A program made the position numbers and the translations under genes. This document shows positions 10,715-60,682 of a stretch of 64,000 nt of DNA, piece by piece. Source of the DNA: a virus; IMG/VR virus record IMGVR_UViG_3300042894_005670. One strand, given 5' to 3'. Position 1 is the stretch's first letter. Each line of letters opens with the position of its first letter. The notes beneath the pieces are model-generated. The model was not told the DNA's origin. It did no database searches and worked only from the letters and a program-made list of their open reading frames with translations.

Positions 10715-10935
10715 TCTTCAACTCCGAAATGTTCTCTAATTTCTTCGTAAATATCTAATGCCTCGTGATCGGCTGCAACATTGGCACATTCCTTCACAAT
10801 CAACTCGGCGAACTTTTCTGTCCATTCATGAAGGAAAGTAAAATCTACCTCTCCACCATCATCAACAAAACTACCAAATTTTTCTTTGGTGTCATCCCAA
10901 GCCTGTTCAGCAAGTTCTTTAATTCGTTCGTTCAT
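10711..10935 (-). CDS. MNERIKEL-family small protein, paralog 3
   Basis: MNERIKELAEQA...EKFAELIVKEC...EHFGVEE; start moved to 10935. Confidence 0.7.
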   Translation of the reverse strand: MNERIKELAEQAWDDTKEKFGSFVDDGGEVDFTFLHEWTEKFAELIVKECANVAADHEALDIYEEIREHFGVEE

Positions 10936-11025
10936 TCTTCTAATCCTAATTCTTTTGCCAGCCCCAAACAAAACCAGTGACAAAACCTATCACATAACAG
11001 GCCAGCAATGCCAAACCAATCTCGT

Positions 11026-11190
11026 TCATTCTTTAACTCCTTGAACCATTTCATCCAATTCTTTTGCCAAGTCATTCATACGATAGCGACCTTCTATCTT
11101 GGAACCGATGTAGCGATTATCATAGTAATCACCGTTTTGGCGTTCACGCTCGTCTAAATACTCTTCTAACACTTCAGTAAACTTTCTCAT
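11026..11190 (-). CDS. Hypothetical protein, 54 aa (MRKFTEVLEEYLDERERQ...)
   Basis: Manual translation; ATGA coupling on both sides. Confidence 0.6.
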   Translation of the reverse strand: MRKFTEVLEEYLDERERQNGDYYDNRYIGSKIEGRYRMNDLAKELDEMVQGVKE

Positions 11191-11435
11191 TCTTCAACTC
11201 CGAAATGTTCTTTTAGACCTTGAATATTATCATAACACTTTTCAGCACAAATTTCAAAATTTGATTGAAAAACAGGATCTTCTTCTGATTCAGAAAGACC
11301 AAACAATCTTTCTGCTTCATTGTCGAGATATTGGCAACATTCTCTGACAATCAACTCGGCGAACTTTTCCGGGATAATAAACCCATGCTCTGGATCATAA
11401 CATTGTTCAGCAAGTTCTTTAATTCTCTTGTTCAT
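11187..11435 (-). CDS. MNERIKEL-family small protein, paralog 4
   Basis: MNKRIKELAEQC...EKFAELIVREC...KEHFGVEE. Confidence 0.7.
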   Translation of the reverse strand: MNKRIKELAEQCYDPEHGFIIPEKFAELIVRECCQYLDNEAERLFGLSESEEDPVFQSNFEICAEKCYDNIQGLKEHFGVEE

Positions 11436-11529
11436 TATACTTTCCTATTAAGGACAAACCCTTTAAAGTAGATAAAAAAAGCTTTAGCTACATGCTTCAT
11501 TTGACGTAAATAATATTGACGGTATGACA

Positions 11530-11724
11530 TTATTCCATTCCAAAATGTTCTTTAATGGCTCGTGCAGTGGCACTATCACCATTAAACACTGCAAGTTTAA
11601 TACATTCAAAAAGAATTAAATTAGCAAATTGCTCTAGATCGGGTTGTGCAAATGGAATCTCAAAGCCTAACCTGTCATACTTTCTTGTCGCCTGTTCAGC
11701 TAATAACTTAATTTGTTCATTCAT
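11530..11724 (-). CDS. MNERIKEL-family small protein, paralog 5
   Basis: MNEQIKLLAEQA...EQFANLILFEC...IKEHFGME. Confidence 0.7.
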   Translation of the reverse strand: MNEQIKLLAEQATRKYDRLGFEIPFAQPDLEQFANLILFECIKLAVFNGDSATARAIKEHFGME

Positions 11725-17813: not shown

Positions 17814-20534
17814 CTATTCAAAAGTAAATAGTGAGTCAAATTTATTGTTTATGTTTGTATTTTTTTCTAAATCCCATCCTAATACACCAAGTAGATTGTC
17901 AATCTTTTTATCTACTAATGTATATTCCATTTCACGATCATCAAATGGTAATTCAACAAACCATTGTGGTAATCGTAACTCATCAGTAGGGTACGCAATA
18001 CTTGTAAAATTTAACGGGTTGTTTTTTAACTTACAAACAATAATTTTAGAACCATTGGTAATCTTTGTACTGTAATTATCATGGTTTAGTTGTCGAAGAA
18101 AATTCCAATTAAGCGAGGCACGAACGTGGCCTGGCATGTTGACTTTACCATCTTTACTACGGTTTAATTTTTCTTCATACAACGCTAACTTATTAACTGC
18201 TTTAGGACTACCTTTATTCCAACTTGGCATTTCACGTAGTTTATGTTTGAAAGTTATAATCTTTTTAATAATGTCATCACGTGAAGATCCTCCTAGAACA
18301 TCTTCTAGTATACTGAATAAAAACTCTTGTACAAATTTTGGTGTGTCAGCACGTTTTAGATCAAGACCCATTGCCTTAATCTTACCTAACTTACCATCAT
18401 TGTCTAAACGTTTACCTTCTTTGTCATAAATGTTAACTGCATATCTTTTCTTAGTAATAAACAATCCACGATCAGCAACTAATTCACGTCCTGCTTTAAT
18501 AATAGAACCACTTGATTTAGGACAATGAAAGGTATCATACATAAATTGTGGAAAACTTTGATTGACTGTATTGCCTAACTCATCATATATAGCAATTGCA
18601 TTTTCTTTAGTCCACGTCTTTTTTAGTTCAGCATCTTGTGACCATATAGGCCATCCACTGAAATAACATGAGTCAGTGTCACCATAAACAATAGCATCAC
18701 CTGTATGATCATATTCGCCTGTAATTAATTCATTTAAATACGCACTCATATGTTTTACAATTTGTCTACCTGTTAATGTAGTACTTTGTCCAATACGTTT
18801 ATCGTAAAATCGACAATGTTGATTCAATAGCGCACCATAGGCAGAGTTAAGTAAAATCTTACGTACAAGTTGTCGTTTATCATAAAACTCAGCTTCTTCG
18901 GGGGTTTTTGCTTCTTTAAGTTGTTTTTGAATTTGTTTACGTTCGTTATACCACCTCGTCAACAACCCAGGTATCACCCCCTCTACTTCATTAGTAAAAA
19001 TAGTACCATTGGCACTAAGTATCCATGGTTTACCACTGTTAAAAATTAGTTCGTGTATTTCCGCAGCACTTGCTACATCACTGCCACCACTTTCCCAATC
19101 AATAGTAATCATAGTATGACGTTCTTTATTCATCACCGCCGTATATTCTAAACTACCAAACAATCCTTCCCATAGGATAGGACCATCCTCGCCTTCTACC
19201 TCAGTATCTTCAGATGCATTGCGATTTTTTTTCTTTTCTCGTGCTAGTTTTTGGCTTTTATCATATAAGTATTGATCAGTTAAAGTTTGTTTTAGTTGTC
19301 CAACTATTGTTTCAGGTGCCATGTTTAGTGCACGAATCGTCGATGGATATAGCGAGTTTAAATCAACTGCTGCTATCCATTCATGTATACCTTTTTTAGG
19401 ATAAGCAACATATGCACCCGCAGCTTTACTTTCATCATCAGTATCACGTGTAGGTTTGTCAGGTATGATTAACCCACGTGAATGTGCTTCGTTAATCACA
19501 GCTTGTTCAATCATAGCTACACTGCCCATCACGGTAGGTAATAATACGGTATTTTGATGTGCAATGCTATTGGCTAAGTCTAAAAATTTTAGTTTGTTAT
19601 GAATCTTAAAAAGAAGCATCGTATCTTGACGGTTATACTCTAAGAATGTTTTCCAATCATTATTGTATAGTTGATCAAGTGTACCTTCGTAAGGTGTTTT
19701 CTTTTCACCTACTTCCATTTCACCAATATAATCAAGTTTATAACTATGACGTTGTTCGTAATTATATTTTTTATATAACTCAAGGTAATCCATGTGTATA
19801 CGACCAACTAAATCATAAGTAACTTGTTTTTGATCAAATTGAACAAACTCACGTTGTTTTGGTGGTTGGTTGAGTAAACAAAAACGGTAAGTATCTTCTT
19901 TCGATAATACTCTTGTTACACGATTAACCATATATGGTATATCATAGCCACCACTATTCCATCCTGTTAACACATCAGCATCTTCAATCAGTGTAAAAAA
20001 TGTATCAAACATTTCTGCTTCATCTGCAAAAACAAAGGTATTTTCAAATGATGATGTAATTTCTATTATTTCATCTTGTGATAATCCTTTTGGTGGCACA
20101 CATAGTGTAATCAGTGTATTGCACCAATCAAGATACATTGAAATAGAATTGACTGCATTAAACGGATCACTTGGTGGTGCGAATCCATATTCAGGGTCAA
20201 AGTTTACCTCAATGTCAAAAAAACATGTATGTAATTTTGGTGGTGGAGCATCTAAATAATTATCTGCCAAACATCGAAAGACAGGATTGATATCACTTTC
20301 ATAAGTTTTTTTCTTAGATAATACACGCAATTCTTTTTGAAATTCAGAGCGTTTTGATGTGACGAATTTAGTAAGTGATTCACCATCTACACCACGATAT
20401 TTTCCTTTTGGGTCAGGATAATAAAAAATATATTTGGCTTTGTATTCTTGGTAAACACGCTTACCTTTATCATCACGTTCTACAATGTAAATGATATCTT
20501 TGTCACGATCTAACAACGCATCAACATAACTCAT
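17814..20534 (-). CDS. Family B DNA polymerase (T4 gp43-like)
   Basis: Exo I FFDIEV, Exo II GWNS..YDIPY, Exo III YNRQD; DLNSLYPS, KILLNSAYG, YGDTDS, KKRY; C-terminal clamp-binding-like DSLFTF. Confidence 0.96.
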   Translation of the reverse strand: MSYVDALLDRDKDIIYIVERDDKGKRVYQEYKAKYIFYYPDPKGKYRGVDGESLTKFVTSKRSEFQKELRVLSKKKTYESDINPVFRCLADNYLDAPPPKLHTCFFDIEVNFDPEYGFAPPSDPFNAVNSISMYLDWCNTLITLCVPPKGLSQDEIIEITSSFENTFVFADEAEMFDTFFTLIEDADVLTGWNSGGYDIPYMVNRVTRVLSKEDTYRFCLLNQPPKQREFVQFDQKQVTYDLVGRIHMDYLELYKKYNYEQRHSYKLDYIGEMEVGEKKTPYEGTLDQLYNNDWKTFLEYNRQDTMLLFKIHNKLKFLDLANSIAHQNTVLLPTVMGSVAMIEQAVINEAHSRGLIIPDKPTRDTDDESKAAGAYVAYPKKGIHEWIAAVDLNSLYPSTIRALNMAPETIVGQLKQTLTDQYLYDKSQKLAREKKKNRNASEDTEVEGEDGPILWEGLFGSLEYTAVMNKERHTMITIDWESGGSDVASAAEIHELIFNSGKPWILSANGTIFTNEVEGVIPGLLTRWYNERKQIQKQLKEAKTPEEAEFYDKRQLVRKILLNSAYGALLNQHCRFYDKRIGQSTTLTGRQIVKHMSAYLNELITGEYDHTGDAIVYGDTDSCYFSGWPIWSQDAELKKTWTKENAIAIYDELGNTVNQSFPQFMYDTFHCPKSSGSIIKAGRELVADRGLFITKKRYAVNIYDKEGKRLDNDGKLGKIKAMGLDLKRADTPKFVQEFLFSILEDVLGGSSRDDIIKKIITFKHKLREMPSWNKGSPKAVNKLALYEEKLNRSKDGKVNMPGHVRASLNWNFLRQLNHDNYSTKITNGSKIIVCKLKNNPLNFTSIAYPTDELRLPQWFVELPFDDREMEYTLVDKKIDNLLGVLGWDLEKNTNINNKFDSLFTFE

Positions 20535-21500: not shown

Positions 21501-22025
21501 TTAGAGGAAAATCTGTTTAAGTTTTGGCATGACTGAATTTAAATCAGTGTACAATAATCCTATGCCACCTGCTTGATTAAATGCATCAATTTTTTTAGGA
21601 GTATCGTCGATTAATATGGCAGGTTGGTGTCCATAATTAGCCCACTTCCATTTGTTAGGTTCAAATATAGCTTTTTGAGCAACTTCCCACCCTAAATTAG
21701 TGGCTAACCAATCTTTTTTACCAACTTCACTTGCTTTACGACTATCTTTGGGATCGACCCCACTACTACGTAATGGTGCACTAAGGATACGCCAATCAAT
21801 ATTGTGATCATCTAACCACTTAATTAATTGCATTCCATCAGCTAATGGTGGCATGTTAGCGAAAAAATCTTTTACCCCACGTGGTCCTAACCTACGCAGA
21901 CTATCTACCCTACTTTCTTTGTCAGTACCATCATATTTAAGGATAGCTTGGTCAAAATCAGCTAGGACACCATCCATATCAACAAAGACAAAAGGTTTTG
22001 GTTTACTTACTTCGAAGATTTTCAT
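21501..22025 (-). CDS. HAD 5'(3')-deoxyribonucleotidase (NT5C-like) with MKIFEV N-terminus
   Basis: FVDMDGVLADF, ILSAP, K..W, LIDD. Confidence 0.8.
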   Translation of the reverse strand: MKIFEVSKPKPFVFVDMDGVLADFDQAILKYDGTDKESRVDSLRRLGPRGVKDFFANMPPLADGMQLIKWLDDHNIDWRILSAPLRSSGVDPKDSRKASEVGKKDWLATNLGWEVAQKAIFEPNKWKWANYGHQPAILIDDTPKKIDAFNQAGGIGLLYTDLNSVMPKLKQIFL

Positions 22026-22438
22026 ACTCTGCAATTTCCTATAACTTTTGTTATTGTTGTAAATTCACGTGCTACACGATCATAAAACAATTCAGGAGGT
22101 CTTTCACTGTAAGTACGATAACCTAAAGCAAGTTGCCCCATGTCAACATAATAGGATAAACTAGGCCAACGTTTTCTGTTGAGCTTTAATCCATCAATAA
22201 GTATACATTCTTCTGCCAATCTTGTCAAATTAGTTTTTTTGGTTTCACCATCAGTGTTCATGGCTTCCATTAATTTTATGGCAATAGGTTCGTTATTAAT
22301 ATTTGGGTTTTCCATATGTCTTGCAAACATATGTACGGTAAACGCCTCTATATCAGGATCAAGATTAACACATGCAGCAGCTTCGGCGGCAAGAATTACC
22401 TCGTAGCTATGCTTGACATAGGTCATCCAATGTTGCAT
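22022..22438 (-). CDS. Hypothetical helical protein
   Basis: ORF coupled to both neighbours. Confidence 0.65.
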   Translation of the reverse strand: MQHWMTYVKHSYEVILAAEAAACVNLDPDIEAFTVHMFARHMENPNINNEPIAIKLMEAMNTDGETKKTNLTRLAEECILIDGLKLNRKRWPSLSYYVDMGQLALGYRTYSERPPELFYDRVAREFTTITKVIGNCRV

Positions 22439-22439
22439 A

Positions 22440-23684
22440 TTAATGTTCAAGCAATAAGGTTATAATAACGTCATTACGGTTAGCACTATCGTCCCCATCC
22501 CCAGGCGCCACCACCACATTCCAATATGGCTCACCATTAGACTTTGTACCATCCTTAAATCCCATCATTTGATCATAAGTAATAATCGTTTGTGGTTTTA
22601 TACCATATTTTTGTGCTGCACGTTGTTTGAATGTTTCCCAAGCCTCTGCATTTTTCCAACGTAATTTATTATTTGCATCACGCCCCATTAAATCAGTAAA
22701 CAATGCACGATCAACAATTTCACTACGCTTTACTTCTTGACCTGTCTGTTTTTTAAATAATTCTACTTTTTTGAATTCTCCTGATTTTGCTCCCATAGAA
22801 AAATTAATTCTAAAATTCTTTGGACGTTCGCTTGTTGCAACATCGCCTATTTTTGTATAGGCATAAAATTGCACGTCAGGAAACTTTCTTGCAACATCAT
22901 AGGCTAAGTTAAGATATTCAGGGCTAAAGAAATCACCCGCATCGTGCCAACGAATGATGACTTGTGTACCCTGTTTTTGAAACTTATTTCTTGCAGATTC
23001 AATCTCATTTTCTAGCATAGCTTTCCATCCATCGGGATCATTAAGTAAAAAATTTAATGATCTTGATCCTGCTTCAGATGGTGGAGCATATTGTACATAA
23101 CCACCTTTCATTGCATAACATACTTGTACGCATTTTCCTGCCCCAGGGCAAGTATTTACAACCACAAATTTCATCTTTTCTTCATCTACTGCTAAACCAA
23201 CTAAAGCAGGTAAACCAATATTAAAAAATATACTGCTACTTCCATCACTATGCTGCATTTTTTCGTTTTGTTTTAACAGCTTCTTAGGACGTTGCATCAC
23301 TGATGCCATCAATTTTGGCAAATCATACAATTGATTACTAGGATCTACAATAGGCACTGTGCCACTGTGAATATATGGACGTATTAGTTTATCTTGCTTA
23401 AATCGTTTGTAAACTTCGTATTCTTCACCTGACATTTTACCAAGTTGTTTTTTACTTGGTCTACGATATTTTTTCTGTAATTCAGGGCTAAGTTTTCTAC
23501 GTAAATAGTCAGTTAATTCGTCTTCAGGATAATCTCGACGTGGTGCCCCTAAGAATTTTTCAGCTTCATCTAATTCTTCTTGATCTTGTACAAATTGTTG
23601 TAGTGACATCACCTCAACTCCCTGAGCGGCGCCTGGAAAATCGGACTTTAATGTATCTTCAAGTAATAATTCATTAATTTTCAT
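22440..23684 (-). CDS. GP88-like Cys-cluster (radical-SAM-like) protein
   Basis: LPAL...TCPGAGKCVQVCYA, IRWHDAGDFFS, FYAYTK, INFS. Confidence 0.7.
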   Translation of the reverse strand: MKINELLLEDTLKSDFPGAAQGVEVMSLQQFVQDQEELDEAEKFLGAPRRDYPEDELTDYLRRKLSPELQKKYRRPSKKQLGKMSGEEYEVYKRFKQDKLIRPYIHSGTVPIVDPSNQLYDLPKLMASVMQRPKKLLKQNEKMQHSDGSSSIFFNIGLPALVGLAVDEEKMKFVVVNTCPGAGKCVQVCYAMKGGYVQYAPPSEAGSRSLNFLLNDPDGWKAMLENEIESARNKFQKQGTQVIIRWHDAGDFFSPEYLNLAYDVARKFPDVQFYAYTKIGDVATSERPKNFRINFSMGAKSGEFKKVELFKKQTGQEVKRSEIVDRALFTDLMGRDANNKLRWKNAEAWETFKQRAAQKYGIKPQTIITYDQMMGFKDGTKSNGEPYWNVVVAPGDGDDSANRNDVIITLLLEH

Positions 23685-23716
23685 AGTAACAATACCTTTA
23701 TAGTATTTATTTCATT

Positions 23717-24418
23717 TTATCCAAAACCAAACGTGCCATAGTGTTTAGAACGTGCATAGGCAGCTATTAAAACTTTACCGCCAATCTTACGCCATTCATT
23801 ACAAAAATGATAATCTTCAGATAGTAAATTATAATCAATACTTGTTTGAAAAAATCCGTATGTTAATCGACCTGTATATTCACCCCAATTACCTATATAA
23901 GTTGGAGTATGCGGTTTTAACTTTTCAAACACATTACGTTTGATAAGCATATATCCCGTACCTGCATGAATAGCTTCTTTCAAACGATCAGGTTCATTGT
24001 CTAATTGGGGATCCTCGCCAGGGGCTGCATTAAATATATACCAAGTACTATAAAATGGTAATTTTTCAGGTGGCTCCCCGTTTCGTACAGCATGATGTAC
24101 CCATTCCCAATTAATAATTTTTGATGGATAACATCCACAAATCAAATCTACATCCTCATTAATCATACGAATTACATCAGGTGGATTGATGATTACGTCA
24201 GCGTCTAAAAATAATAAATGAGTACAATCACTTAATAAAAAATCTGATACTAAATTATCTCTAGCACGTGTGATTAACGATTGATCATACGTAAAATGAT
24301 ATTCTAATTTCCACTTTTTCTTTCTAAATTCTTCAATTAATTTAATTAATGCATCAGCAAATAACCCATGACATTGTCCACCATACATGGGTGTTGCAAG
24401 AAAAACTTTTGGCTTCAT
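23717..24418 (-). CDS. GT-A-fold glycosyltransferase-like protein
   Basis: ATPMYGG, SLITRARD, FLDADV (DxD), GTGYMLIKR.VF, SEDY.FC. Confidence 0.75.
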   Translation of the reverse strand: MKPKVFLATPMYGGQCHGLFADALIKLIEEFRKKKWKLEYHFTYDQSLITRARDNLVSDFLLSDCTHLLFLDADVIINPPDVIRMINEDVDLICGCYPSKIINWEWVHHAVRNGEPPEKLPFYSTWYIFNAAPGEDPQLDNEPDRLKEAIHAGTGYMLIKRNVFEKLKPHTPTYIGNWGEYTGRLTYGFFQTSIDYNLLSEDYHFCNEWRKIGGKVLIAAYARSKHYGTFGFG

Positions 24419-24462
24419 CTTTACCTCATTAAAAGTAAAGATATTTAATGTGGTATTGCTGT

Positions 24463-24642
24463 TTAATTATTTTTAATTAAATCATCCAAATATGCTCTTG
24501 CCGCACGATAATGTTCAACTTCAAAATTAAATGTTTTCCATTCGCCACTAGCACATTGTGCAGTAAATGAATAACTTCTTAATGGTTGTGCCATAGGTGG
24601 TGGTGCCATAGGTGCTTCGTTTGATCCTCCAACTAAACTCAT
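24463..24642 (-). CDS. Hypothetical protein
   Basis: Start moved to MSLVGG (AAGGAG RBS). Confidence 0.55.
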   Translation of the reverse strand: MSLVGGSNEAPMAPPPMAQPLRSYSFTAQCASGEWKTFNFEVEHYRAARAYLDDLIKNN

Positions 24643-24655
24643 GTTATTATTCTCC

Positions 24656-26845
24656 TTATGATGAGCCAAAAAACTTATTCATCAAAGCTTTTTGTTTTTT
24701 AGGTTTTGCCCCAAGTACAGGACTAATATTAGCCACCTTATCAGTGCCACTTAAGTATTTTGGGTTACGCTTGTCCTCTTTAGTATAACGTGGGTCTTTA
24801 GGGTCATACTCAGTACCAAATGCACTCTTAACTTGTGACGAATTGAATATGATATAAGACATATCTATATAGTCAGCTTGTTTTTGCAAATACTGATGCG
24901 CTTCTTGTTCAGCTTCTTCAGGTGTATCGCCTTCACCAATAGGTAAAGTAGGCATAACATTATCAGGTAAATATGCTACGTATTTTGATCCTTCTTTTTT
25001 AATCGTAAAATTAATGCGCTCATCAGGTCGCAATGTTCGCTTACCTTCATTAGTATTACGATATTGTATACCATCATATCCCGCATCAAACAATGAACGT
25101 GCTAATTCAGCATAGATTGTTGCTTTACAGTCATCCCAATCCATATCACGATCCCTACGAATTGCTTCAAGTTCGTTATATTCTTTTTGGTTAATAATCT
25201 TTTTCTTAAATAAAAAATTCATAACTTGACGTAAATGCTCTTCATCAGGACCAAATATGTCAGGCATAGTAAAAGGGTTTGTAATCTTTAAAAATACAGG
25301 AATTACACGTGCTCCACTATATTTGGCAAACTCATTAGCTGCTTCACGATTGCCAAAATGTATACCAAAATCACGATATAAATTTTTAAACGTTGAAAAA
25401 TCATTAGATGTACCATGATAAACAATCATAGGAGCACCATTACTATCAACTACTTTACTATTGCCAAACCATGCTCTTAAATTTTCCTCACGACCTTCTA
25501 CTAATTCTTTTAAAAAACTCATGGACTCTTTGTTGATATTAGGATTAGTTGGGTCAAATGTACCATCATTGTAAACGGATTTGATTTGCTCAGGGCGTAA
25601 TGCTATGTACCACGTTTTGGTTCTGCCTTTTATAACGAAGCCATCATTACCGTTTTCTGTAGCCTTTTTAAGAAGATTACGCACTTGGACGTATCCCTTA
25701 CTAGAATTAGACATTGACACCCATTTGTCCACGGATATAGAAAGCGGATTTTTAATAGATAAGAAAACGGGGATGATGTTGGCACCTTCTTGTTGAGCAT
25801 ACCCGCCAGCATCCGAGGCTGACGTTGAGAAAAAGATGCCTAGATAATCAGTTGCATTTGGCACACTGCTGCCTTTTGGCGCAGACTTGTCAAACGCTGC
25901 AAAGTTTCTGAGCGTACCGTGATACACCACTAACGGATCGCCTCTTTCATCAACCACCTTACTATTACCAAACCACTTATTAAAATTATTTTTTCTATCA
26001 TTACTATCTTCTTTAGTAATGTCAGGTTCATATTTACCAAATGTACCTACATTATATATAGACTTGATTTGATACTGTTCAAATGGACGATAAGTTAAAA
26101 TAATCGGTGTGCCCTCAGCACCAAGTTCTAACTCTTTTCCATCACGTGGTTCATATTTTTGGGAACCTGCTTCAAAAACATCTTTTAAAATGACACCATC
26201 ATATCCCATACCTTGTAGGTAACTTACAATATCTTCACTATCTGCAATAGTATATGTATCTATAACCGTATTGTCTAGTGCATCCTCAATAGAACTAATA
26301 TCGTCTGCTTCACCCCATGTGTCAATTTGATCTGAAAGGTCACGAAATCCTTTTATTCTAAAACCATCATCGTCATAAGCATTGATTGAAAATCTTGCGC
26401 CTGTTTTGTATATAATTTCATCTAAATCATATATCATATAGGACACATCTCTCCAACCTAATTTTTTACGTCCACCATCAGGTACATTTAGATCACTAGG
26501 CACCGTATTAATAAAATCTATTAATGATATTGTTTCGTTATAACGGGTAAGATCTAATGGTTTAACAATTCGTAAATACGCTGCGATTACAGTAGAACCA
26601 CTACCATATTGTCTTGTGTCTAAATGTCTAGAGTATACACTAGCTGCTGCAGGGTCATTAGTAAAAGATGGTACTGCACGACCTTGAGTTAATTTAAATT
26701 CTGTGGCAGCAGGTCGCTTACGTGTACCACGATATACAACAAGTGGGTTGCCATTACTATCAACCACTTTACTATTACCAAACCAACTACGAAATGCTTT
26801 TGTCTCTCTAGCTTTTTGGTATTCTAATAATTGTCCAATTTTCAT
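24656..26845 (-). CDS. Three tandem ART-PolyVal-like ADP-ribosyltransferase domains
   Basis: WFGNSKVVD..G.P..VY(H/R)GT...L.I..P...G.DG...Q(I/V)KS repeated three times. Confidence 0.8.
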   Translation of the reverse strand: MKIGQLLEYQKARETKAFRSWFGNSKVVDSNGNPLVVYRGTRKRPAATEFKLTQGRAVPSFTNDPAAASVYSRHLDTRQYGSGSTVIAAYLRIVKPLDLTRYNETISLIDFINTVPSDLNVPDGGRKKLGWRDVSYMIYDLDEIIYKTGARFSINAYDDDGFRIKGFRDLSDQIDTWGEADDISSIEDALDNTVIDTYTIADSEDIVSYLQGMGYDGVILKDVFEAGSQKYEPRDGKELELGAEGTPIILTYRPFEQYQIKSIYNVGTFGKYEPDITKEDSNDRKNNFNKWFGNSKVVDERGDPLVVYHGTLRNFAAFDKSAPKGSSVPNATDYLGIFFSTSASDAGGYAQQEGANIIPVFLSIKNPLSISVDKWVSMSNSSKGYVQVRNLLKKATENGNDGFVIKGRTKTWYIALRPEQIKSVYNDGTFDPTNPNINKESMSFLKELVEGREENLRAWFGNSKVVDSNGAPMIVYHGTSNDFSTFKNLYRDFGIHFGNREAANEFAKYSGARVIPVFLKITNPFTMPDIFGPDEEHLRQVMNFLFKKKIINQKEYNELEAIRRDRDMDWDDCKATIYAELARSLFDAGYDGIQYRNTNEGKRTLRPDERINFTIKKEGSKYVAYLPDNVMPTLPIGEGDTPEEAEQEAHQYLQKQADYIDMSYIIFNSSQVKSAFGTEYDPKDPRYTKEDKRNPKYLSGTDKVANISPVLGAKPKKQKALMNKFFGSS

Positions 26846-27282
26846 CCACGGTCTTTTTTCAATATGCTACGAAGCATCCATGAATGTTTTGCGTGACTAT
26901 CAATACGTCCTGCTATAAAATCAGCAATACCTTGCTCATCTTCTGCTTCACATTGATGGAATGTTTCTTTTAATAATACAATAATCTTTTGATTATCTTC
27001 GTACAATTCTGCCATCATTAACTCAGCACGTGGTATTTGTTGTTGCTCATCAATAATACTTAACTCTTGATACCTCGTCATGGATCCTGGTGCATATGAG
27101 TCTAACTGTCGAATTATTTCAGCTAGTTGATCAATACTGCCATATACTTCATTATACAAATCACCTAAAAATGCATGATATTGTGGAAAGTTTGGGCCTT
27201 CAATGTTCCAATGAAACCCTGCTGCCTTTATATAAAAAGCAAATGATGTTCCTAACACTTGCTTTAACTTATCTTTTAACAT
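26842..27282 (-). CDS. dps: Dps ferritin-like protein
   Basis: FHWNIEGPNFPQYH, D.LAE.IR, H.KH.WMLRS. Confidence 0.9.
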   Translation of the reverse strand: MLKDKLKQVLGTSFAFYIKAAGFHWNIEGPNFPQYHAFLGDLYNEVYGSIDQLAEIIRQLDSYAPGSMTRYQELSIIDEQQQIPRAELMMAELYEDNQKIIVLLKETFHQCEAEDEQGIADFIAGRIDSHAKHSWMLRSILKKDRG

Positions 27283-29728
27283 TCTTTTTACCTTCTAGCA
27301 TATTCTTTTGTGCTTCGTGACCTTCCATATACTCTGCTACATCTTTTATTAGTTCATCAGCACGTGTAATGTGGTCGGAGACCCATCCTGGCAAGCCTTG
27401 TCCTTCACTTCTACCTTTAATTATCTTAGCAAGTGACATTGAACTTTTTACGGTAGATAATAAACTGTTTACTGCCATTGATACTTCATGGTCAGGTTCC
27501 ATATGCTTAGCTTTAACTACATCACCACGCATACGCATTTTACCAGGCATCACTATGAGGTCTTGTTCACTTAAATCAGCTTCCTTCAATGTGTTAGGTA
27601 TAGCACCCGTATTGTTTAAGAAAAACTGATCTGTTACACCTGCTTTAATTTTTAAATCTCGCACTTGCTCTCTATACTCGTTAATTTCTTCCGCAATAGC
27701 ACGACCTAATATTTGACCAATTTGTTCAGGTGTTGCAGGTACATCAGGTCCTGTACCACCAAATTTTGTATTTACTAACCTAGGGAAGTAATTTCTAACA
27801 ACACTAGCTAAACGATTAACTGTTTCACTCGTTAAAGCTTTGTATTGTTGTATATAATTATCATATGAAATATTGTTAGCTAATGCTTTACCACCTGCGG
27901 CTATCGCTGCACCTGCCGCTGCAGCTTTACCTAAACTTCCTAAAAATCCTCTACGTGCAGGATCAGCTTCATTGATACTTTCTTCATCAGAAAATTTTGC
28001 ATCACGTAATGCATCTTCAAAAATTTCATCTAATCCATAAATTGCACTTTCTAATTCATGCTTGGCTTCATAAACACGGCTATTATGATAATTAAAATCA
28101 TCCATGTCTAATGCATAAGCTTTTACTAAATTTTCAATTTCTACCATAATTTCATTTACGGTATTATCGTATGAAATTCCTTTAGTAATTTTTCTAGCTT
28201 GCATTAAGGCACGTTCCAAATCATCTGCACGACCTTCGTTAATGCTTTCGTTCTTAGATTTATTACCCCAATTCTTTGCACCTGCTTTACGACATTTAAC
28301 TAATGCACCACTAGCATATGCACTAGGCCAAATTTTGTAACGACTTTTTACCTTATGGTAGCATGCATCTTTTTTACCTTCAGTAAATAATGCTTCACTG
28401 ACCATTTCACCATTACATTGTGGGCAAATACCCTCTTTGACATAATACTCAAGACTTTCATTCTTAGTCTTGTTGCTTACCATATCAGCCGCACCTTGAC
28501 GTTGTGGGTTTGGATCTTCACGGCGTTTTTTACGTACTGCTGCTGCAATAGCTTTTTTACCACCACTAGCACGTAATGATGCTGCTTTTTCTTTACTTAG
28601 GCATTTTGGTTTACCTTCACCTGCTTTACGTTCTCCACACTTACCAATACGCTCACCTTTAGTATTGTAGCGATCCCATCCACCGCCACCTGCACCACCT
28701 TCACCGCCTTTACCAAACCATGCACGTAAATCTTCGCTTAATTGTTCAGCAATTTCACTTTCACTGAATTCTTTGCCAACTAGTTTATCACCTGTAACAC
28801 CTTGAATTAGTGCCCATGCACGTTGAAATTCTTTTTCTTTAATTAATTGATTTAGGATTTGTTTTTGACGTGGATCTGCCATTTTAAAGAATTTAACCAT
28901 TTCCATTGCACCGATATTACCTTCATAACCTAGTTCCATCAATGCTTCTTCATTAGTATGAGATTGGTATTCATCATAATCCATATACATATCGGTATCA
29001 CGATCATAATACTTACCTTCTTTAGGATCGTAATAAACAATCTTACCTGATTTTAAACGAAATGGTCCTTCTAACCCTTGGTCTGACATATCTGTATAAC
29101 GTTCTTTATCAATTGGAGTTGATATTTTCCAACCTTCCGCCACACCTTGCGTCTCTGGACCATCCATCCAACTCTGCGTTAGTTTAATCATATCTAACGG
29201 AATGCGTTTTTTATCGTGAATTTCCATTGCCTTCAATCTTGCGGATTCTTGTGATGGGAACGGAATGGCATCAAACTTCTTATCTCTAAGAACTTTACCT
29301 TTAACTCTTACATACCAGTTTTCAGAGCCTTCCGCCACACCTTCTTTCCTAATACCAAGTGTACTCGCAGGATTACCTCCACCAAACATACTAGCAAATG
29401 CATCACTTGCTTGTTGTTTAGTATCTGCTTTTTGTTGTTTTTTTACTGATTTTTTACTCGTAACCTTTTTAAGCATTGTTTTAAACTTATCACCATCCGT
29501 TGTTGGATTAGTAGCTTCTGCCACCGTCTTTTTCTTTTTGCTACCTGCCCAATTACCCCACTCTGAAGCACTGCGCTCTACACTATTCATGTATTTTTTA
29601 CCACTATCTGCAGTCTCATCCGTTTTTTCACGTTTTACTGTTTCTTTGAATAATGGTGTGGCAACAGTAGCAACTGAACCTGCTGTCATTTCATTAATTT
29701 TATCTAAGGTTTTACGAATATCTGACAT
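27269..29728 (-). CDS. Modular virion-internal polyprotein (about 10 modules joined by hydrophobic-x-E motifs)
   Basis: INE|M, VAE|A, GVAE|G twice, LME|L, LSE|D, FTE|G, INE|G, INE|A, LKE|A separating unrelated segments; TAAATA upstream. Confidence 0.65.
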   Translation of the reverse strand: MSDIRKTLDKINEMTAGSVATVATPLFKETVKREKTDETADSGKKYMNSVERSASEWGNWAGSKKKKTVAEATNPTTDGDKFKTMLKKVTSKKSVKKQQKADTKQQASDAFASMFGGGNPASTLGIRKEGVAEGSENWYVRVKGKVLRDKKFDAIPFPSQESARLKAMEIHDKKRIPLDMIKLTQSWMDGPETQGVAEGWKISTPIDKERYTDMSDQGLEGPFRLKSGKIVYYDPKEGKYYDRDTDMYMDYDEYQSHTNEEALMELGYEGNIGAMEMVKFFKMADPRQKQILNQLIKEKEFQRAWALIQGVTGDKLVGKEFSESEIAEQLSEDLRAWFGKGGEGGAGGGGWDRYNTKGERIGKCGERKAGEGKPKCLSKEKAASLRASGGKKAIAAAVRKKRREDPNPQRQGAADMVSNKTKNESLEYYVKEGICPQCNGEMVSEALFTEGKKDACYHKVKSRYKIWPSAYASGALVKCRKAGAKNWGNKSKNESINEGRADDLERALMQARKITKGISYDNTVNEIMVEIENLVKAYALDMDDFNYHNSRVYEAKHELESAIYGLDEIFEDALRDAKFSDEESINEADPARRGFLGSLGKAAAAGAAIAAGGKALANNISYDNYIQQYKALTSETVNRLASVVRNYFPRLVNTKFGGTGPDVPATPEQIGQILGRAIAEEINEYREQVRDLKIKAGVTDQFFLNNTGAIPNTLKEADLSEQDLIVMPGKMRMRGDVVKAKHMEPDHEVSMAVNSLLSTVKSSMSLAKIIKGRSEGQGLPGWVSDHITRADELIKDVAEYMEGHEAQKNMLEGKKNVKR
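29133..29343. repeat. Exact 16-bp direct repeat CCTTCCGCCACACCTT (encodes GVAEG on the minus strand) flanking a 65-codon module
   Basis: 29133-29148 and 29328-29343, 195 nt apart. Confidence 0.9.
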
Positions 29729-29772
29729 GATGGAATTCCATAATATCTAGTATTTATTCGCTATGAATTAAT

Positions 29773-31182
29773 TTAGAACTTACCTGATGGCTTTGCTATG
29801 GGTGGTATACCACTACGTTTAATCTTACCTAAACCTAATTTTATAGCATTTTGTCTAATACTATCAGGTTTAATATCAACCGTTAATGCTGTTTTAAATC
29901 TTGGATCGTTTTTTTCTGCTTCACTAGGGATATATCCTGAAGCCTCATTAACATTAAATGTAGGATCAACTTTCTGACGTTTCATTCCTTTGGGTTGGTT
30001 AGGGTCAAGAGGATCAATATCCGTAGTAGATAAACCTGTTGCTTCTAAATCATCAATATATTTGTGTTCAGTATCTTCATCACCAAATGTTAATATGGTG
30101 CTAGGTGGTCCTTTACCAAAATCATGCTTACCTAAACCCTTAAGATTACTAATATGTTGTCCTAACTTATACCAATCATACACATCACTTACATCTACTC
30201 TAACCGTACCTTTTGGCATAGTGGGTTTAAACTCAGGACCAGGTGGGTTTCCGTTAGGGTCATAATCATCACGTAATTTACTATAATGTTTTCTATTTTT
30301 AGCCAAGTTTTTGTATGCCATTTCAGTAGCTAAACTACGCACACTAGTATTTGCCATTTCAAACTTTATACCACGCTTTAATTCACTTATGATATCATTT
30401 CTACTACAACCATGCATCTTTGCTAATTCACTAATAGTATATACAGGTTGTTCAACATTTTTACCAACCTTTTGCTCCATACTCATCTTTTCACTATGTA
30501 TTTCATTATAAGTATCACGCAGACGATGCAATAAACCACTAGTACGGAACGCTTTAAATGCTATATTTTCAGGAGAAAATTCACCTTGTGCATCTAAACC
30601 TGCTTTTCGATATTTTCTAATTGTATCTAGTAAGTCTTCAATCTTGTCTATATCTCTAGCTTGTAGTGCTAATTCAGCTACTTGTGCTAATTTTTCAAAC
30701 TTTAATTGACTTGCTGGTTCGTTGATATCAGCAACACGTTTGGTAGGAAATTTTATCCAACGATCTTTTAGTACACTGTACTCACCACGACTAACAACAG
30801 GATCAGCCGTATCTTGTACGTATAATTCTACTTCATAACCGCCTATAGTAATATCATGTTGCAAATTCCATATGATTTTTTTACTATGAAATAACTCACT
30901 ATAAATTTCATCATTTTTTAATTTCTTAATATCAACTAAAATATGTAAGTCAATATCACTATGTGGCGTATAGGTATATGAAGCATTGCTACCACTTAGT
31001 GTAATATCTTTAACATCTATATTACTTACACCAAGATGCTCCATAAAATCATCTGCAATTTCTAATAACCGATCACGCACAGCAGGAATCATGTGTTCAT
31101 CCCTAAAAATAGCAGGGTTTAACTGATCATGAAACTGTATAGCGTTTGATAATTTAAATTGTTCTAATTCTTTTAAATTCAT
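29773..31182 (-). CDS. Pol-beta-type nucleotidyltransferase fused to further modules (incl. degenerate DUF5661-like)
   Basis: LSGSNASYTYT..SDIDLH, VELYVQ; start MNLKEL after TAAATA. Confidence 0.75.
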   Translation of the reverse strand: MNLKELEQFKLSNAIQFHDQLNPAIFRDEHMIPAVRDRLLEIADDFMEHLGVSNIDVKDITLSGSNASYTYTPHSDIDLHILVDIKKLKNDEIYSELFHSKKIIWNLQHDITIGGYEVELYVQDTADPVVSRGEYSVLKDRWIKFPTKRVADINEPASQLKFEKLAQVAELALQARDIDKIEDLLDTIRKYRKAGLDAQGEFSPENIAFKAFRTSGLLHRLRDTYNEIHSEKMSMEQKVGKNVEQPVYTISELAKMHGCSRNDIISELKRGIKFEMANTSVRSLATEMAYKNLAKNRKHYSKLRDDYDPNGNPPGPEFKPTMPKGTVRVDVSDVYDWYKLGQHISNLKGLGKHDFGKGPPSTILTFGDEDTEHKYIDDLEATGLSTTDIDPLDPNQPKGMKRQKVDPTFNVNEASGYIPSEAEKNDPRFKTALTVDIKPDSIRQNAIKLGLGKIKRSGIPPIAKPSGKF

Positions 31183-31195
31183 AGTTGTATTTAGC

Positions 31196-32999: not shown

Positions 33000-33683
33000 T
33001 TATGCTACTTCAGGAGGTTTTTGTATTGAGTATTCCTTTTTAATACATTCATGAAAAGTCATATAAAACAATGATTGCATATGCTCATCGTCATAATCAA
33101 AAAATAAATCTCCACCAATCCATCGACCATTTTTATTATTTGCATCCCAATGCATATAAAAATTAAAATTAGGAGATGGGAAAAAATGTTTTTTATACTT
33201 TGTAAAAAAATCACGTAATTCAATTAATTCGGTATGAGAATACACCCTTGACTTTAAATAGATACGAAAATTATGCTTTGGGTTTTTATGATATATAATT
33301 TCTTTAGGTCTTGAAAAATTTACAAGTACTTCTTCAACAGTGTTAGGTTGACCTAAAATTTTAGCTAAATCTTCTATAATATCATAGCGTGTTGAATATA
33401 CAGTAATACTATTAACATGTTTTAATGTTTTAATATAATCATCATTTGCTGATTTCCATATAAGAAATTTCTTAATTTCAATTAAGTTTTTAACATAAGC
33501 TTCACGAAGATTAGAACGAAGTAATTCGCTTTGTATTATTTCTAAATCATAATTTCTATGGATACCAATTTGCTTAAGGTCAAAACAAACTTTATATTTG
33601 TACTTGTCATACCATAACCAATGTTGATTTACATTAGGTTGCAGTGTTGTATAGCTAAATCCTGATAATACCATCTGTTCCAA
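33000..33683 (-). CDS. Hypothetical protein
   Basis: 227-aa ORF. Confidence 0.6.
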   Translation of the reverse strand: MEQMVLSGFSYTTLQPNVNQHWLWYDKYKYKVCFDLKQIGIHRNYDLEIIQSELLRSNLREAYVKNLIEIKKFLIWKSANDDYIKTLKHVNSITVYSTRYDIIEDLAKILGQPNTVEEVLVNFSRPKEIIYHKNPKHNFRIYLKSRVYSHTELIELRDFFTKYKKHFFPSPNFNFYMHWDANNKNGRWIGGDLFFDYDDEHMQSLFYMTFHECIKKEYSIQKPPEVA

Positions 33684-35931
33684 TTACCTCATCCTTATCA
33701 ATTGTTTTTTCTGCTGTAAAATTAATTTCATCTCCGTTTAGTATAACGTGAACATTAGAATCTTTTAATTTTTCAAATAAAATCTTTTTACTTAACGGTA
33801 CTCTGATAAGTTCATCAATCTTACGAGCAAGTGGACGTGCACCCATTTTATCGTCATAACCAACTTTAGCTAAGTGCTCAACTGCTTGCTCACTAATCGT
33901 TAAATTAATCTTGTGCTGTTTAAGTAATTGTGCTTTTAACTCATTAACAAATTTAATAACAATTTTCTTAATGGCTAACATGTCTAACTTACTAAACTTA
34001 CATACTAAATCAATACGATTACGCAGTTCAGGTTTGAAAAACTCTTTAAATGCTCGGTCATCTTCACCTACTTTTTGTGTTGACCCAAAACCAATGTTTG
34101 ATTTTTCACTATCTCTAGCACCTAAATTACTAGTCATAATAATGATTGTGTTTTTAGCATCTACCGTTTTACCATTAGTGCTAGATATTCTACCCTCATC
34201 CAATAATTGTAAGAATAAGTTATACACATCAGGGTGTGCTTTTTCAACCTCATCAAACAATAATATAGCGTATGGGTTTTTACTTAGATCATTGATAATT
34301 TTTCCACCACCAAGATTACCTTCACCATAGCCGACATAGCCTGGGGGCGCACCAATCAAAGCAGCTACGCTATGTTTTTCTTGATATTCACTCATATCAT
34401 AACGTAGCAATGGCATGCTTAAATGTTCGCTTAATAATCGAGCAGTTTCAGTCTTACCGCTGCCTGTTGGTCCTAAGAATAAGAAACTTGCCATAGGTTT
34501 CTTTTCATTAGAAATACCCGCAAAGCTAACATATATTCTATCTAAAATTTTCTCTAATGTAGCATCTTGCCCATAGAGTTTTTGTTTAATATTTTGATCT
34601 AAGTTAGTCATTTTTTCTGATGAATCATTAGTAAGTTTGTCCGCAGAAACGTTACACATTCTAGTGACTTGTTCTTTAATACTATTTTCATCAATAATTG
34701 CACCAACATTGTTTGCAGCACGTTGTTTAGCACATGCTGCATCGAGTAAATCAATGGACTTATCAGGATTTTTTCTATCATGAATATATCTTGCGCTCAT
34801 AGTGACTGCCTCAGTAATAGCATTAGGCATAATTTTTACACCATGAAATGACTCAAGACGTTCACTTAATCCTGTCAAAATGTCAATAGTAGTTGCATTT
34901 GTTGGCTCATCAATAGAAACACGGTAAAATCGACGCATTAAAGCACGATCTTTTTCAAATGATTCGTAGTATTCTTCCCACGTGGTACTAGCAATTACCT
35001 TCAAGTTACCTTTTGTAATTGCAGGTTTAATCATATTGGCAAAGTCTACACTGCCACCACTACCATTTCCACTACCACGCATAGTGTGTGCTTCATCTAT
35101 GAATAAGATAGCTTTAGGTTTGGTTGCTAATGCTTCTAAAACGTGTTTAACTTTTTCCTCAAAATCACCACGATACTTACTACCTGCAAGTAGTGATCCA
35201 ATTTCTAATGAATATACTTCATGGTCAAACAAAAATGGTGGTACATTTTTGTCAAGAATTTTTTGTGCTAAACCTTCAGCAAGGACGGTTTTTCCAACGC
35301 CTGGGTCGCCAACAAGTAATACATTAGATTTGAAACGTTTAGCTAATACATTGACAATATCATTAACTTCACTTTCACGCCCAATCAATGGCTCAATTTT
35401 ATTACGTTTGGCTAACTCAGTTAAACTAATCGTAAACTCATCTAATACTTCATTAGCTTGTTGCTCAGTCATTTTTCCACTCTTACTACTTTTGTGTGCT
35501 TTATTCCAATAAGCAATAAATTCATTCCGTGTTACGCCCCATTTCAATAAGAAATAATGTGCATGGCTGTTAGTTTCCTGTAAAATTGAAATATATATGT
35601 CTATTAGTTCAATTTGTCTGCGTCCTGTGAATAATACTTGTGTTACTGCACGATTAAAAACACGCTCAAGTGAATGAGTTTTCTTTGGTGCTACAGGAGT
35701 ACCATCTTCATTTGGAGACACTTTTAAATTATTGACTGAATCTAAATATTCATCAACTTCTTGAATAAGTTGTACTGTATCGACACCAAATTCATCTAGA
35801 TGTTCCCTAAATGATTCAAAGGTAATCAAACTTAACAAAGCATGTTCTAATGTTACATAACCATGATATCTGCTTTTTGCAATCTCAATGGCATGCTCAA
35901 TTAATTTTTCAATTTCAGGGTTGTTTATCAT
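33655..35931 (-). CDS. clpA: ClpA-type Hsp100 ATPase
   Basis: Clp N domain, GDPGVGKT, GSKYRGDFE, FIDEAH, GPTGSGKT, GAPPGYVGY, FDEVEKAH, IGF loop, GARPL. Confidence 0.93.
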   Translation of the reverse strand: MINNPEIEKLIEHAIEIAKSRYHGYVTLEHALLSLITFESFREHLDEFGVDTVQLIQEVDEYLDSVNNLKVSPNEDGTPVAPKKTHSLERVFNRAVTQVLFTGRRQIELIDIYISILQETNSHAHYFLLKWGVTRNEFIAYWNKAHKSSKSGKMTEQQANEVLDEFTISLTELAKRNKIEPLIGRESEVNDIVNVLAKRFKSNVLLVGDPGVGKTVLAEGLAQKILDKNVPPFLFDHEVYSLEIGSLLAGSKYRGDFEEKVKHVLEALATKPKAILFIDEAHTMRGSGNGSGGSVDFANMIKPAITKGNLKVIASTTWEEYYESFEKDRALMRRFYRVSIDEPTNATTIDILTGLSERLESFHGVKIMPNAITEAVTMSARYIHDRKNPDKSIDLLDAACAKQRAANNVGAIIDENSIKEQVTRMCNVSADKLTNDSSEKMTNLDQNIKQKLYGQDATLEKILDRIYVSFAGISNEKKPMASFLFLGPTGSGKTETARLLSEHLSMPLLRYDMSEYQEKHSVAALIGAPPGYVGYGEGNLGGGKIINDLSKNPYAILLFDEVEKAHPDVYNLFLQLLDEGRISSTNGKTVDAKNTIIIMTSNLGARDSEKSNIGFGSTQKVGEDDRAFKEFFKPELRNRIDLVCKFSKLDMLAIKKIVIKFVNELKAQLLKQHKINLTISEQAVEHLAKVGYDDKMGARPLARKIDELIRVPLSKKILFEKLKDSNVHVILNGDEINFTAEKTIDKDEVIGTDGIIRI

Positions 35932-36361
35932 ATTGTTTTTCCAATTTTCTATCCATCATAGTAATACCATCTAAATGATCCACTTCATGTTGTATAACAC
36001 GTGCTTCTAACCCACTAAATGTTTCAACAAACATGTTACCATTTGCGTCATTGTAAGATAGCACAATAGTTTCAGGTCTGTCAAGTTCCACTGATTCATT
36101 AGGATAGCTTAAACATCCTTCAAGATAAGGTGTACTACCTTGTGCATCTTGAATCATAGGATTAAAAAAAGCTTTTTCATTATTATCTACTGCCATAACA
36201 AAAACCCTACTGCGTAATCCAACTTGATTAGCAGCAAGTCCAATACCACCACTTTCATGCATAAATTTTAACAACTGCTTAGCTAATAATTCGTTTTGTA
36301 TGGGGTATTTGAAATCAACAGGTTTAGTTTTTTGATATAATGTTCTTTTAGTTAGCTTCAT
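35915..36361 (-). CDS. def: Peptide deformylase
   Basis: [24 protein letters not shown]. Confidence 0.95.
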
Positions 36362-37152
36362 TTCGTATTTAATACACGTTCTTGCTCTAAAACTCTGATT
36401 AAATTGTCACTTATTTCTTCAGGCATAATGGGTCTAAGTATAACATACTGATCACCCAATCCAAAATTATTGGATAAACCATGACCACCTAACCTTAATG
36501 TTGCATTAGGTTTAGCTCTTGGTTGTATGCTGATTTCTAGTTCTTTACCATATATCGTTGGTACGATAATTAACGAACCTATGACTAAGTCAAAAATACT
36601 TATATCATAATTAAAATATAAATCTAACCCACGCCTTTCAAACAAAGGATGCCTATGTTGTCTATAAGTAACTTGAAGTGGTCCATCAGGCATTAACCCT
36701 TCATACTTAACAACACCACCATCGTCAATACCTTTTGGTATTTTCACTTCAAATAATTTCATACCTTGTGGTGTATTAATTTGCAAATTATGTTTATCAC
36801 CTGTGGCTATTTGTTCTAAAGTGACAAATACTGTAGCGGTATATACTCGCTGCTGCGGTGGTGCATGTGGATGCCTAAAGAATTGCCCAAAAATATCATG
36901 GATATTTTGTCCGAAATGAAACTCAAAACCACCTTGTTGTGGATTAAACCCATTAAATTGTGGTTGAGGATTGTCATAAACAGCACGTTTTTGTGGGTCA
37001 CTTAACGTGTCGTATGCTGCTTGTATAGTTTGAAAACGTGCAGTATCACCACCTCTGTCAGGATGGTGTTGACTTGCTAACTTACGATATGCTTTTTTAA
37101 TTTCATCAGGAGTAGCATTTTTTGCTACTCCTAACGTCTGATAATGATTCAT
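36358..37152 (-). CDS. dnaJ: DnaJ-class co-chaperone (type II, no Zn finger)
   Basis: J domain with HPD, G/F-rich linker, DnaJ C-terminal domain. Confidence 0.9.
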
Positions 37153-60626: not shown

Positions 60627-60682
60627 ATTTGTTTCCTTAATTCTTCACAATGGTATATAGTATTTAACATTTTTATCTAAAT

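Follow-up and report, generated by a model that had tools for sequence, protein, structure and literature searches.

Do the proteins encoded at positions 21501 to 31182 of a 64,000-nucleotide stretch of viral DNA (IMG/VR virus record IMGVR_UViG_3300042894_005670; this whole stretch is hereafter the window) enter the host cell inside the phage head? A reading of the letters alone, hereafter the sequence-only reading, had noted that unrelated proteins of this block begin with similar leaders containing Glu, and had proposed a general loading tag modeled on phage T4, in which gp21 removes a capsid-targeting sequence (CTS) and Alt is processed as well (PMC9026906, PMC8442874). The S77 proteases of T4, phiKZ, and SPN3US all cleave after Glu (PMC9026906), an S77 protease is carried by jumbo-phage groups 1 and 2 (PMC7824862), and ART-PolyVal domains, which occur in the block, have been predicted to be packaged in virions and injected (PMC5512222). 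Our analysis reveals a portable, specific N-terminal leader with a terminal Glu that heads otherwise unrelated proteins, and on balance we lean toward the view that the leader-bearing proteins of the block are T4-style head cargo, targeted to the capsid and processed by a protease. Rather than a general tag, the leader marks only some three or four proteins here, and the predicted cargo set is limited to an 819-residue modular protein, a GP88-like enzyme, a protein termed p945, and probably a triple ADP-ribosyltransferase (ART). The block runs on the minus strand from 31182 to 21501 in the order given below, with a 68-codon open reading frame (ORF) between the ART and GT1 genes; p945 is encoded outside it.

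29773 to 31182, minus strand: nucleotidyltransferase (NTase), 469 residues; Pol-beta-type domain at residues ~1–236 followed by a C-terminal extension (Pfam NTP_transf_2, phrog_36119).
27269 to 29728, minus strand: 819-residue modular protein; class-1 leader at residues 1–13 (nt 29690–29728); no Pfam family.
26842 to 27282, minus strand: Dps/ferritin-like protein, 146 residues; Pfam Ferritin, E = 4e-23, domain from residue 4; no leader.
24656 to 26845, minus strand: triple ART-PolyVal protein, 729 residues; PF18760 in three stretches, E = 1e-58; leader at nt 26822–26845.
23717 to 24418, minus strand: GT1, glycosyltransferase-like protein, 233 residues; phrog_1574, weak Anp1 match; no leader.
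22440 to 23684, minus strand: GP88-like enzyme, 414 residues; PF17338, E = 1e-35; class-2 leader at residues 1–9 (nt 23658–23684).
22022 to 22438, minus strand: orf138, coupled between the GP88-like and HAD genes; no leader, and no match in Pfam or PHROG.
21501 to 22025, minus strand: HAD 5'(3')-deoxyribonucleotidase-like protein, 174 residues; phrog_2643, E = 1e-20.
57789 to 60626, minus strand: p945, acidic and of low complexity, among tail-fibre-like genes; class-1-like leader MDLRSIIAQISQLEE↓G at nt 60582–60626 (arrows mark candidate cuts).

The six N termini quoted in the sequence-only reading are all present where it placed them, and their starts are correct. The two leader classes were defined on the GP88-like protein, which has 2103 metagenomic homologues at E <= 1e-5; 120 of these were listed, roughly 45–58% identical to it, plus two close relatives. 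Among the 120, 74 start with M-D-I-R-K-I-L-D-x-[IV]-[TN]-E or a near variant (class 1), while about 20 start with M-K-I-x-[DE]-L-L-x-E (class 2), which aligns to the last nine positions of class 1. In the family alignment, the N terminus of the window's GP88-like protein matches the leader column for column. An ungapped class-1 matrix, built solely from the leaders of GP88 homologues in other phages, scored the N terminus of the 819-residue protein at 25.1 bits, compared with a maximum of 8.1 bits over 55,749 internal positions, and no other N terminus of two contigs exceeded 4 bits. The next-best distinct N terminus was that of p945 (3.9 bits; 7.0 bits with a gapped hidden Markov model, HMM), and its orthologue in the related contig G001 retains the leader. 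The class-2 matrix gave 14.2 for the GP88-like protein but only 1.7 for the ART and 1.6 for the HAD protein, these two lying at ranks 15–17 of 629. Scanning with a leader model, as the sequence-only reading had suggested, was specific in the ungapped form, whereas the gapped 13-state HMM (10.8 bits on the 819-residue protein and 7.6 on the best internal position) discriminates poorly, which is why the ungapped matrix was relied upon.

Genomic contexts of GP88 homologues were obtained via DNA-pattern scans of IMG/VR, in which degenerate patterns for the class-1 leader retrieved 51 loci. About 40 of them are GP88-type genes, several with extra modules between the leader and the GP88 core, and one encodes an unrelated 802-residue protein with a PG_binding_1 domain on G003, a relative contig of 278 kb. 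Class-1-type leaders head four kinds of protein, namely GP88-type proteins with or without inserted modules, the 802-residue PG_binding_1 protein, the 819-residue protein, and p945-like proteins, and no significant similarity was found among the cargo parts behind them. Thus, the similar leaders on unrelated proteins claimed at the outset hold up for the 819-residue protein, the GP88-like protein, p945, and, less surely, the ART, but not for the N termini of the HAD protein and the NTase. No leader was seen on the HAD protein, Dps, orf138, or either of two glycosyltransferases (GT1 and GT2).

A hydrophobic-x-Glu near the N terminus is, by itself, an unspecific criterion. Of the 93 contig genes, 22 (24%) have an [LI]-x-E that ends no later than residue 17, among them a ClpA-like ATPase and a small acidic early-type gene family; random internal 17-mers contain one in 16.5% of cases. 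In the block the proportion is 5 of 8, compared with 17 of the 85 genes outside it (Fisher p = 0.017, a comparison selected post hoc). All four candidates have a putative propeptide about 10 residues long with (L/I)-x-E at its end, a feature that is again unspecific alone, the aliphatic-x-E endings being K-I-N-E at residue 13 of the 819-residue protein, L-L-E at residue 9 of the GP88-like protein, L-L-E at residue 8 of the ART, and L-E-E at residue 15 of p945. At 9946 to 11724 of the window lie tandem small acidic genes (54–96 residues) starting M-N-x-R-I-K-E-L-A-E-Q. Most terminate in H-F-G-[VI]-E-[EK], encoded by DNA that includes the ribosome-site GGAG of the next gene. They were considered as analogues of the T4 internal proteins and rejected, given their acidity, their lack of a TAAATA box, and their coupled joint of stop, ribosome site, and start.

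The modular proteins also carry internal joints. In the 819-residue protein, GVAE↓G joints fall at E133 and E198, and INE joints at E498 (INE↓G) and E587 (INE↓A). As the sequence-only reading had it, internal boundaries are of the hydrophobic-x-E type: [ILV]-x-E-[GAS] occurs 11.0 times per 1000 residues in the 819-residue protein and 11.6 times in p945, compared with 3.1 in the rest of the contig, a 3.5-fold enrichment (Poisson p = 0.001 and 0.0002, respectively); the density in G003 is 2.8. VAEG is present twice in the 819-residue protein, is absent from the contig's other 19.7k residues, and appears eight times in the 5.7k residues that make up the modular parts of leader-bearing proteins longer than 450 residues, mostly GP88 homologues. 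Two relatives, L003 and L005, are ~90% identical overall and allow the modules of the 819-residue protein to be compared; in them, one module that follows GVAE↓G is replaced, two GVAE↓G joints have gained another module between them, and the one behind INE↓A has been lost. A given module can follow different joints in different phages. The joints are thus enriched and are points of module exchange between near-identical relatives. The middle modules of the 819-residue protein are shared with T4-like cyanophage genes located between gp16 and gp17, some of which are annotated as "structural protein." Right after INE↓A, at 27878 to 27967, the window encodes a Tat-like R-R-x-F-L, a Gly/Ala-rich stretch, and A-L-A; this module is present but diverged in L003 and deleted in L005.

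The GP88-like protein matches PF17338 over residues 139–316 with 123.8 bits (cut-off 24.4). Its layout comprises the class-2 leader, a variable propeptide region, E40 within [LIVM]-x-E↓A (nt 23565–23567), and a conserved core. The [LIVM]-x-E↓A motif divides the variable, often acidic N-terminal region from the core in 33 of 33 aligned homologues, in which E40, a three-Cys cluster, and an RWHDAGDFF motif are all invariant. In the AF2 model, pLDDT falls below 50 at residues 1–23 and 34–40, and the leader is modeled, with low confidence, as a short helix. The sequence-only reading had listed an Fe-S enzyme; the spacing of the invariant cysteines here is C-x5-C-x3-C, compared with CxxxCxxC in radical SAM enzymes. 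Foldseek returned no clear match (best hit NifB, E = 0.004), and VIA-align gave Z = 5–6.2 for SPL, MiaB, QueE, Cfr, and PFL-AE, mixed with unrelated folds and all at Z <= 6.3. Radical SAM enzymes recur among the modeled fold matches, although the resemblance is weak and not decisive.

The ART protein matches PF18760 in three stretches with 198 bits (cut-off 31.2). Ahead of its first domain, which begins F-x-x-W-F-G in homologues, lies a 13-residue extension (MKIGQLLE↓Y...) that is retained in close orthologues down to 58% identity, the 58%-identical one reading M-R-I-N-D-L-T-E-Y. Set against the H-Y-D active-site pattern, with its His on strand 1 (PMC5512222), repeats 2 and 3 retain V-Y-H-G-T and G-[YN]-D-G, the Tyr position not being fixable from the alignment, whereas repeat 1 has Arg in place of the catalytic His, as does a separate homologue subfamily.

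The HAD protein and the NTase fare differently. The leader assigned to the former (MKIFEV) is not supported: the phrog_2643 match places residues 8–163 on profile positions 5–161, so there is no real N-terminal extension, the fold-start motif D-x-D-G-V is found as D-M-D-G-V at residues 17–21, and the class-2 score is 1.6; this N terminus cannot be told from background. One GP88 homologue starts MKIFEITKPK, possibly by coincidence. The case for a leader on the NTase is undecided and weak. Its tblastn matches begin at query residues 1–6, and its first residues are common to some cyanophage homologues (MNLKE/MNLQE in DSL-LC02 and MNLK in Molly_1), suggesting that the "leader" belongs to the family N terminus and is not an added tag; the S-CRM01 and S-H34 homologues start differently. 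Within the 230-residue C-terminal extension of the NTase (29773 to 30470) lie a VNE↓A site and a helix-turn-helix with weak likeness to IF2_N; the L003 NTase carries a different extension, and in G003 a 241-residue NTase is followed by a separate 90-residue gene with a class-2 leader. Although co-transcribed, the Dps, both glycosyltransferases, orf138, and the HAD protein give no indication that they are cargo.

G003, whose DNA polymerase is 58% identical to that of the window and which is rated 75% complete, carries the tag on a handful of proteins. Upstream of its DNA polymerase gene, at a locus that mirrors the one in the window, lie, in order, a 393-residue gene, two small genes, Dps, a 50-residue ORF, a 306-residue gene, and the 802-residue gene. 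The first starts M-D-M-K-R-I-L, the 802-residue gene starts MDIRAILNKLDE, and the 306-residue gene starts MKIRDLLIQE↓YQ, compared with MKIGQLLE↓YQ in the window's ART, while its remainder is unrelated to ART. Leader-like N termini were also found in G003 on a GDSL-esterase with PG_binding_1 and on two further peptidoglycan-binding candidates, in which no signal peptide was apparent by eye, no predictor being applied; peptidoglycan-binding and GDSL domains behind leaders argue for cargo that needs delivery from outside. A leaderless Dps/ferritin gene lies inside the cargo locus both in the window (26842 to 27282) and in G003 (275036 to 275470).

Head machinery of the T4 type is present in G003. 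It encodes an S77 (gp21-type) protease (phrog_207, E = 6e-27) and a Gp23-family capsid protein with a 52-residue extension N-terminal to the Pfam domain, in which the motifs LLE↓S, LLE↓G, and LSE↓S occur. The protease was not found in the window's own 73.7-kb fragment, G001, or G002; such S77/Gp23 negatives are uninformative because these contigs are fragments. When the T4 CTS was compared with 629 N termini by ungapped BLOSUM62, no block protein was in the top 15. G001 and G003 each encode a protein of about 200 residues, starting MKTFRQYLAE and MKSFTEYLTE, that scores 35 and 28 against the T4 CTS (best internal control, 21), with a match to phrog_14802 "virion structural protein" and a weak one to "internal head protein"; the 205-residue G001 protein has no homologue in the window's contig. 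Both genes lie directly upstream of a p945-type gene.

L011:10901 to 11518 (L011 belongs to G001): T4-CTS-like protein of ~200 residues.
L075:15673 to 16275 (L075 belongs to G003): T4-CTS-like protein of ~200 residues.

The expression signals are consistent with late genes. TAAATA lies 5–34 nt upstream of the NTase, 819-residue, GT1, GP88-like, GT2, and p945 genes and of a 1330-residue fibre-like gene.

31188 to 31193: TAAATA box of the NTase gene, 5 nt before the ATG.
29751 to 29756: TAAATAC box of the 819-residue gene.
24442 to 24447: TAAATA box of GT1.
23704 to 23709: TAAATAC box of the GP88-like gene.
60661 to 60666: TAAATAC box of p945.

The observation that several block genes follow TAAATA is thus borne out for the NTase, 819-residue, GT1, and GP88-like genes and does not extend to ART, Dps, and HAD, which lie within operons and have no box. 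The operons 819-Dps-ART and GP88-orf138-HAD are joined by stop/start overlaps; the Dps start overlaps the end of the 819-residue gene, Dps is translationally coupled between this gene and ART, and ATGA overlaps with the upstream genes back the start codons of ART and HAD. Within 60 nt upstream of genes, TAAATA is found in the sense versus antisense orientation 27 versus 4, 47 versus 14, and 64 versus 16 times in three contigs, and a TAAATA(C) box precedes nearly all GP88-type leader-bearing genes found in IMG/VR. Judged by late promoters of the TATAAATA type, operon heads carry strand-specific TAAATA(C) boxes that have the form of T4 late promoters, and a gp55-type late sigma factor is encoded in G003 only (E = 5e-79). 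The distance from the end of TAAATA to the ATG peaks sharply at exactly 5 nt (26 cases in the window contig, G001, and G003, including the NTase), with a second broad group at 17–26 nt. With T4-late-promoter geometry, transcription from a box 5 nt away would begin at the A of the ATG itself, and leaderless late mRNAs may thus be numerous in this phage clade.

The source is probably an uncultured T4-related jumbo phage. The window has a GC content of ~34%, and its minus strand carries nearly all genes. A family-B DNA polymerase at 17814 to 20534 shares 42–50% identity with its counterparts in the jumbo phages Phosso, Atu_ph07, fHe-Yen9-04, and CBB, and the IMG/VR record is 73.7 kb long and rated 21% complete by CheckV, which implies a genome of ~350 kb. 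No longer copy of this phage was returned by a metagenome scan, and Megablast of the block against cultured phages gave no match. Tail-fibre-like, FN3/Gly-rich, and endolysin genes occupy 47–64 kb of the window, where an HNH homing-endonuclease gene (52460 to 53077) lies between a chitinase-like endolysin and a 1438-residue structural gene. At 42924 to 45246, two adjoining genes match a PHROG labeled tryptophan halogenase (E ~1e-70 each). Directly upstream, the block adjoins a ClpA/ClpB-like AAA+ gene (758 residues, 33655 to 35931) and a DnaJ-like gene (36358 to 37152), the latter with a TAAATA box 5 nt ahead of its ATG.

We propose that the block serves as a hot spot where head-cargo genes gather and are transcribed late. 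The 819-residue and GP88-like proteins, and probably the ART and p945, would carry a propeptide of 9–13 residues ending in hydrophobic-x-Glu that steers the protein into the assembling prohead core, where a gp21-type (S77) prohead protease would cut it off. The same protease may cleave the modular proteins at their GVAE↓G and INE↓G joints, yielding a set of small proteins and enzymes that would remain inside the head until they accompany the DNA into the cell. These steps, from targeting and cleavage to packaging and injection, are ones that we infer from the sequence features above; nothing observed points to the action against nucleotide-signaling or NAD-based immunity that the sequence-only reading considered possible.

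Several points weigh against this proposal. Hydrophobic-x-Glu is common in this Glu-rich, AT-rich proteome. The ART leader is statistically weak (class-2 score 1.7), and the linkers between the ART repeats, I-T-K-E and I-N-K-E, place the hydrophobic residue at P4, not P3. Scored against the T4 CTS, the window leaders stay within background; the best-scoring window gene, at 18, is an unrelated small one. No protease, capsid, or portal gene is present in the 73.7-kb fragment or in a 137-kb relative, the head machinery being known solely from G003 at 58% identity. Leader sharing could partly reflect common descent of modular GP88 genes. In addition, tblastn of ART, GP88, and one GP88 homologue against 50,697 phage records gave partial domain matches only; a leader-bearing full-length homologue is absent from these cultured phages, so no virion proteome is usable as an anchor.

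The explanation that survives best beside head cargo is that the leader, though real and conserved, has a function other than capsid loading, such as recognition by a ClpA/ClpB-like unfoldase or a DnaJ-like protein, membrane or cell-pole association, partner assembly, or stability, with the Glu joints being linkers or recombination joints. The ClpA-like and DnaJ-like genes directly upstream of the block suit this explanation, the low-confidence predicted helix could dock on many things, and recombination alone could produce joints that are module-exchange points. However, Glu at P1 with an aliphatic residue at P3 is exactly the S77 rule, a relative encodes both the protease and a gp23-type capsid protein with like propeptide motifs, the genes follow late-type boxes, and the peptidoglycan-binding cargo argues for delivery from outside. 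We therefore regard a purpose unrelated to the capsid as unlikely.

It is distinctly improbable that these are merely ordinary amphipathic starts of AT-rich late genes encoding unpackaged auxiliary metabolic or modification enzymes. The 24% of genes with [LI]-x-E near the N terminus, the leaderless HAD, Dps, glycosyltransferase, and orf138 proteins, the poor discrimination of the gapped HMM, and the DSL-LC02 NTase homologue, whose gene lies within a set of replication genes at a distance of three genes from that of the DNA polymerase, all fit such an explanation. In contrast, the 25-bit match of the 819-residue leader to another family's leaders is hard to reconcile with it, and the invariant Glu joint in GP88, the joint enrichment with exact module swaps, and the retention of the leader on unrelated cargo at the same locus of G003 also count against it. 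Entry of polyvalent-type effectors into the virion by a portal/MuF-type or tail-associated route, with the leader not serving as an address, is very improbable: ART-PolyVal is elsewhere fused to MuF, lysozyme, NUDIX, and GNAT in proteins predicted to be packaged (PMC5512222) and p945 lies among tail-fibre-like genes, but no MuF, portal, or metallopeptidase domain was found in the leader proteins with Pfam and PHROG, and the part conserved between different cargos is the leader itself.

If the leader-bearing proteins are indeed head cargo, a wider picture can be drawn, which we hold tentatively and with somewhat short of even confidence. A family of uncultured aquatic jumbo phages of ~350 kb may use a plug-and-play 12-residue capsid address together with a standard GVAE↓G joint, so that enzymes and modules are loaded, cut free, and injected, and cassettes are exchanged at the joints; the cargo would include ARTs, a GP88-type three-Cys enzyme, peptidoglycan binders, and a module with a Tat-like signal after cutting. 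Should the leader and joints work as proposed, a rule based on sequence would allow the proteins that giant T4-related phages bring into the cell to be recognized in metagenomes alone, and the shuffling of the first-minute toolkit of such phages would be accounted for. The ART-PolyVal and GP88 families would also take their place among injected proteins, and foreign proteins could perhaps be loaded into phage heads by way of a second capsid address with no relation to the first. No published description of CTS-tagged modular cargo in uncultured jumbo phages was found in the literature searched.

Comparing the proposed system with T4 IPI, IPII, IPIII, and Alt (PMC9026906, PMC8442874), both have late genes and a short N-terminal propeptide, predicted in the present case, ending in aliphatic-x-Glu, and they share an ART among the candidates, cargo that varies between related phages, and a gp21/gp23/gp55-type set, here in a relative. 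However, the leader here is M-D-I-R-K-I-L-D-x-I-x-E plus a shorter M-K-I form, which is not significantly like the T4 CTS, and the predicted cargo includes long multimodule chains with internal joints, which are absent from the T4 internal proteins. Moreover, the ART probably belongs to the H-Y-D PolyVal clade, whereas T4 Alt is of the R-S-E clade, and the present system is a prediction from sequence. In the phiKZ-like phages, many head proteins, including ejection/inner-body proteins, are cut after Glu by a gp21-related protease (gp175/gp245; PMC5694885, PMC7411985, PMC10052503), and several redundant propeptide sites and delivery into the host are features in common with our proposal. These phages are of a different lineage with the motif S/A/G-x-E or A-x-E, and neither a portable shared 12-residue leader nor cassette exchange at joints is described there. 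The polyvalent proteins that Iyer et al. (2017; PMC5512222) described from phages and conjugative elements are conceived without a dedicated N-terminal address, and their processing is ascribed mostly to their own zincin-like metallopeptidase domains, whereas no peptidase domain is present here and the joints fit a separate S77 protease. Polyvalent proteins are defined by at least two disparate enzymatic or binding domains on a single chain; the ART protein is one domain repeated, and the 819-residue protein comprises at least six modules, none matching Pfam. Both groups contain ART-PolyVal in several copies, lie in a late-gene context, are predicted to be delivered with the DNA, and have mosaic, fast-changing architectures.

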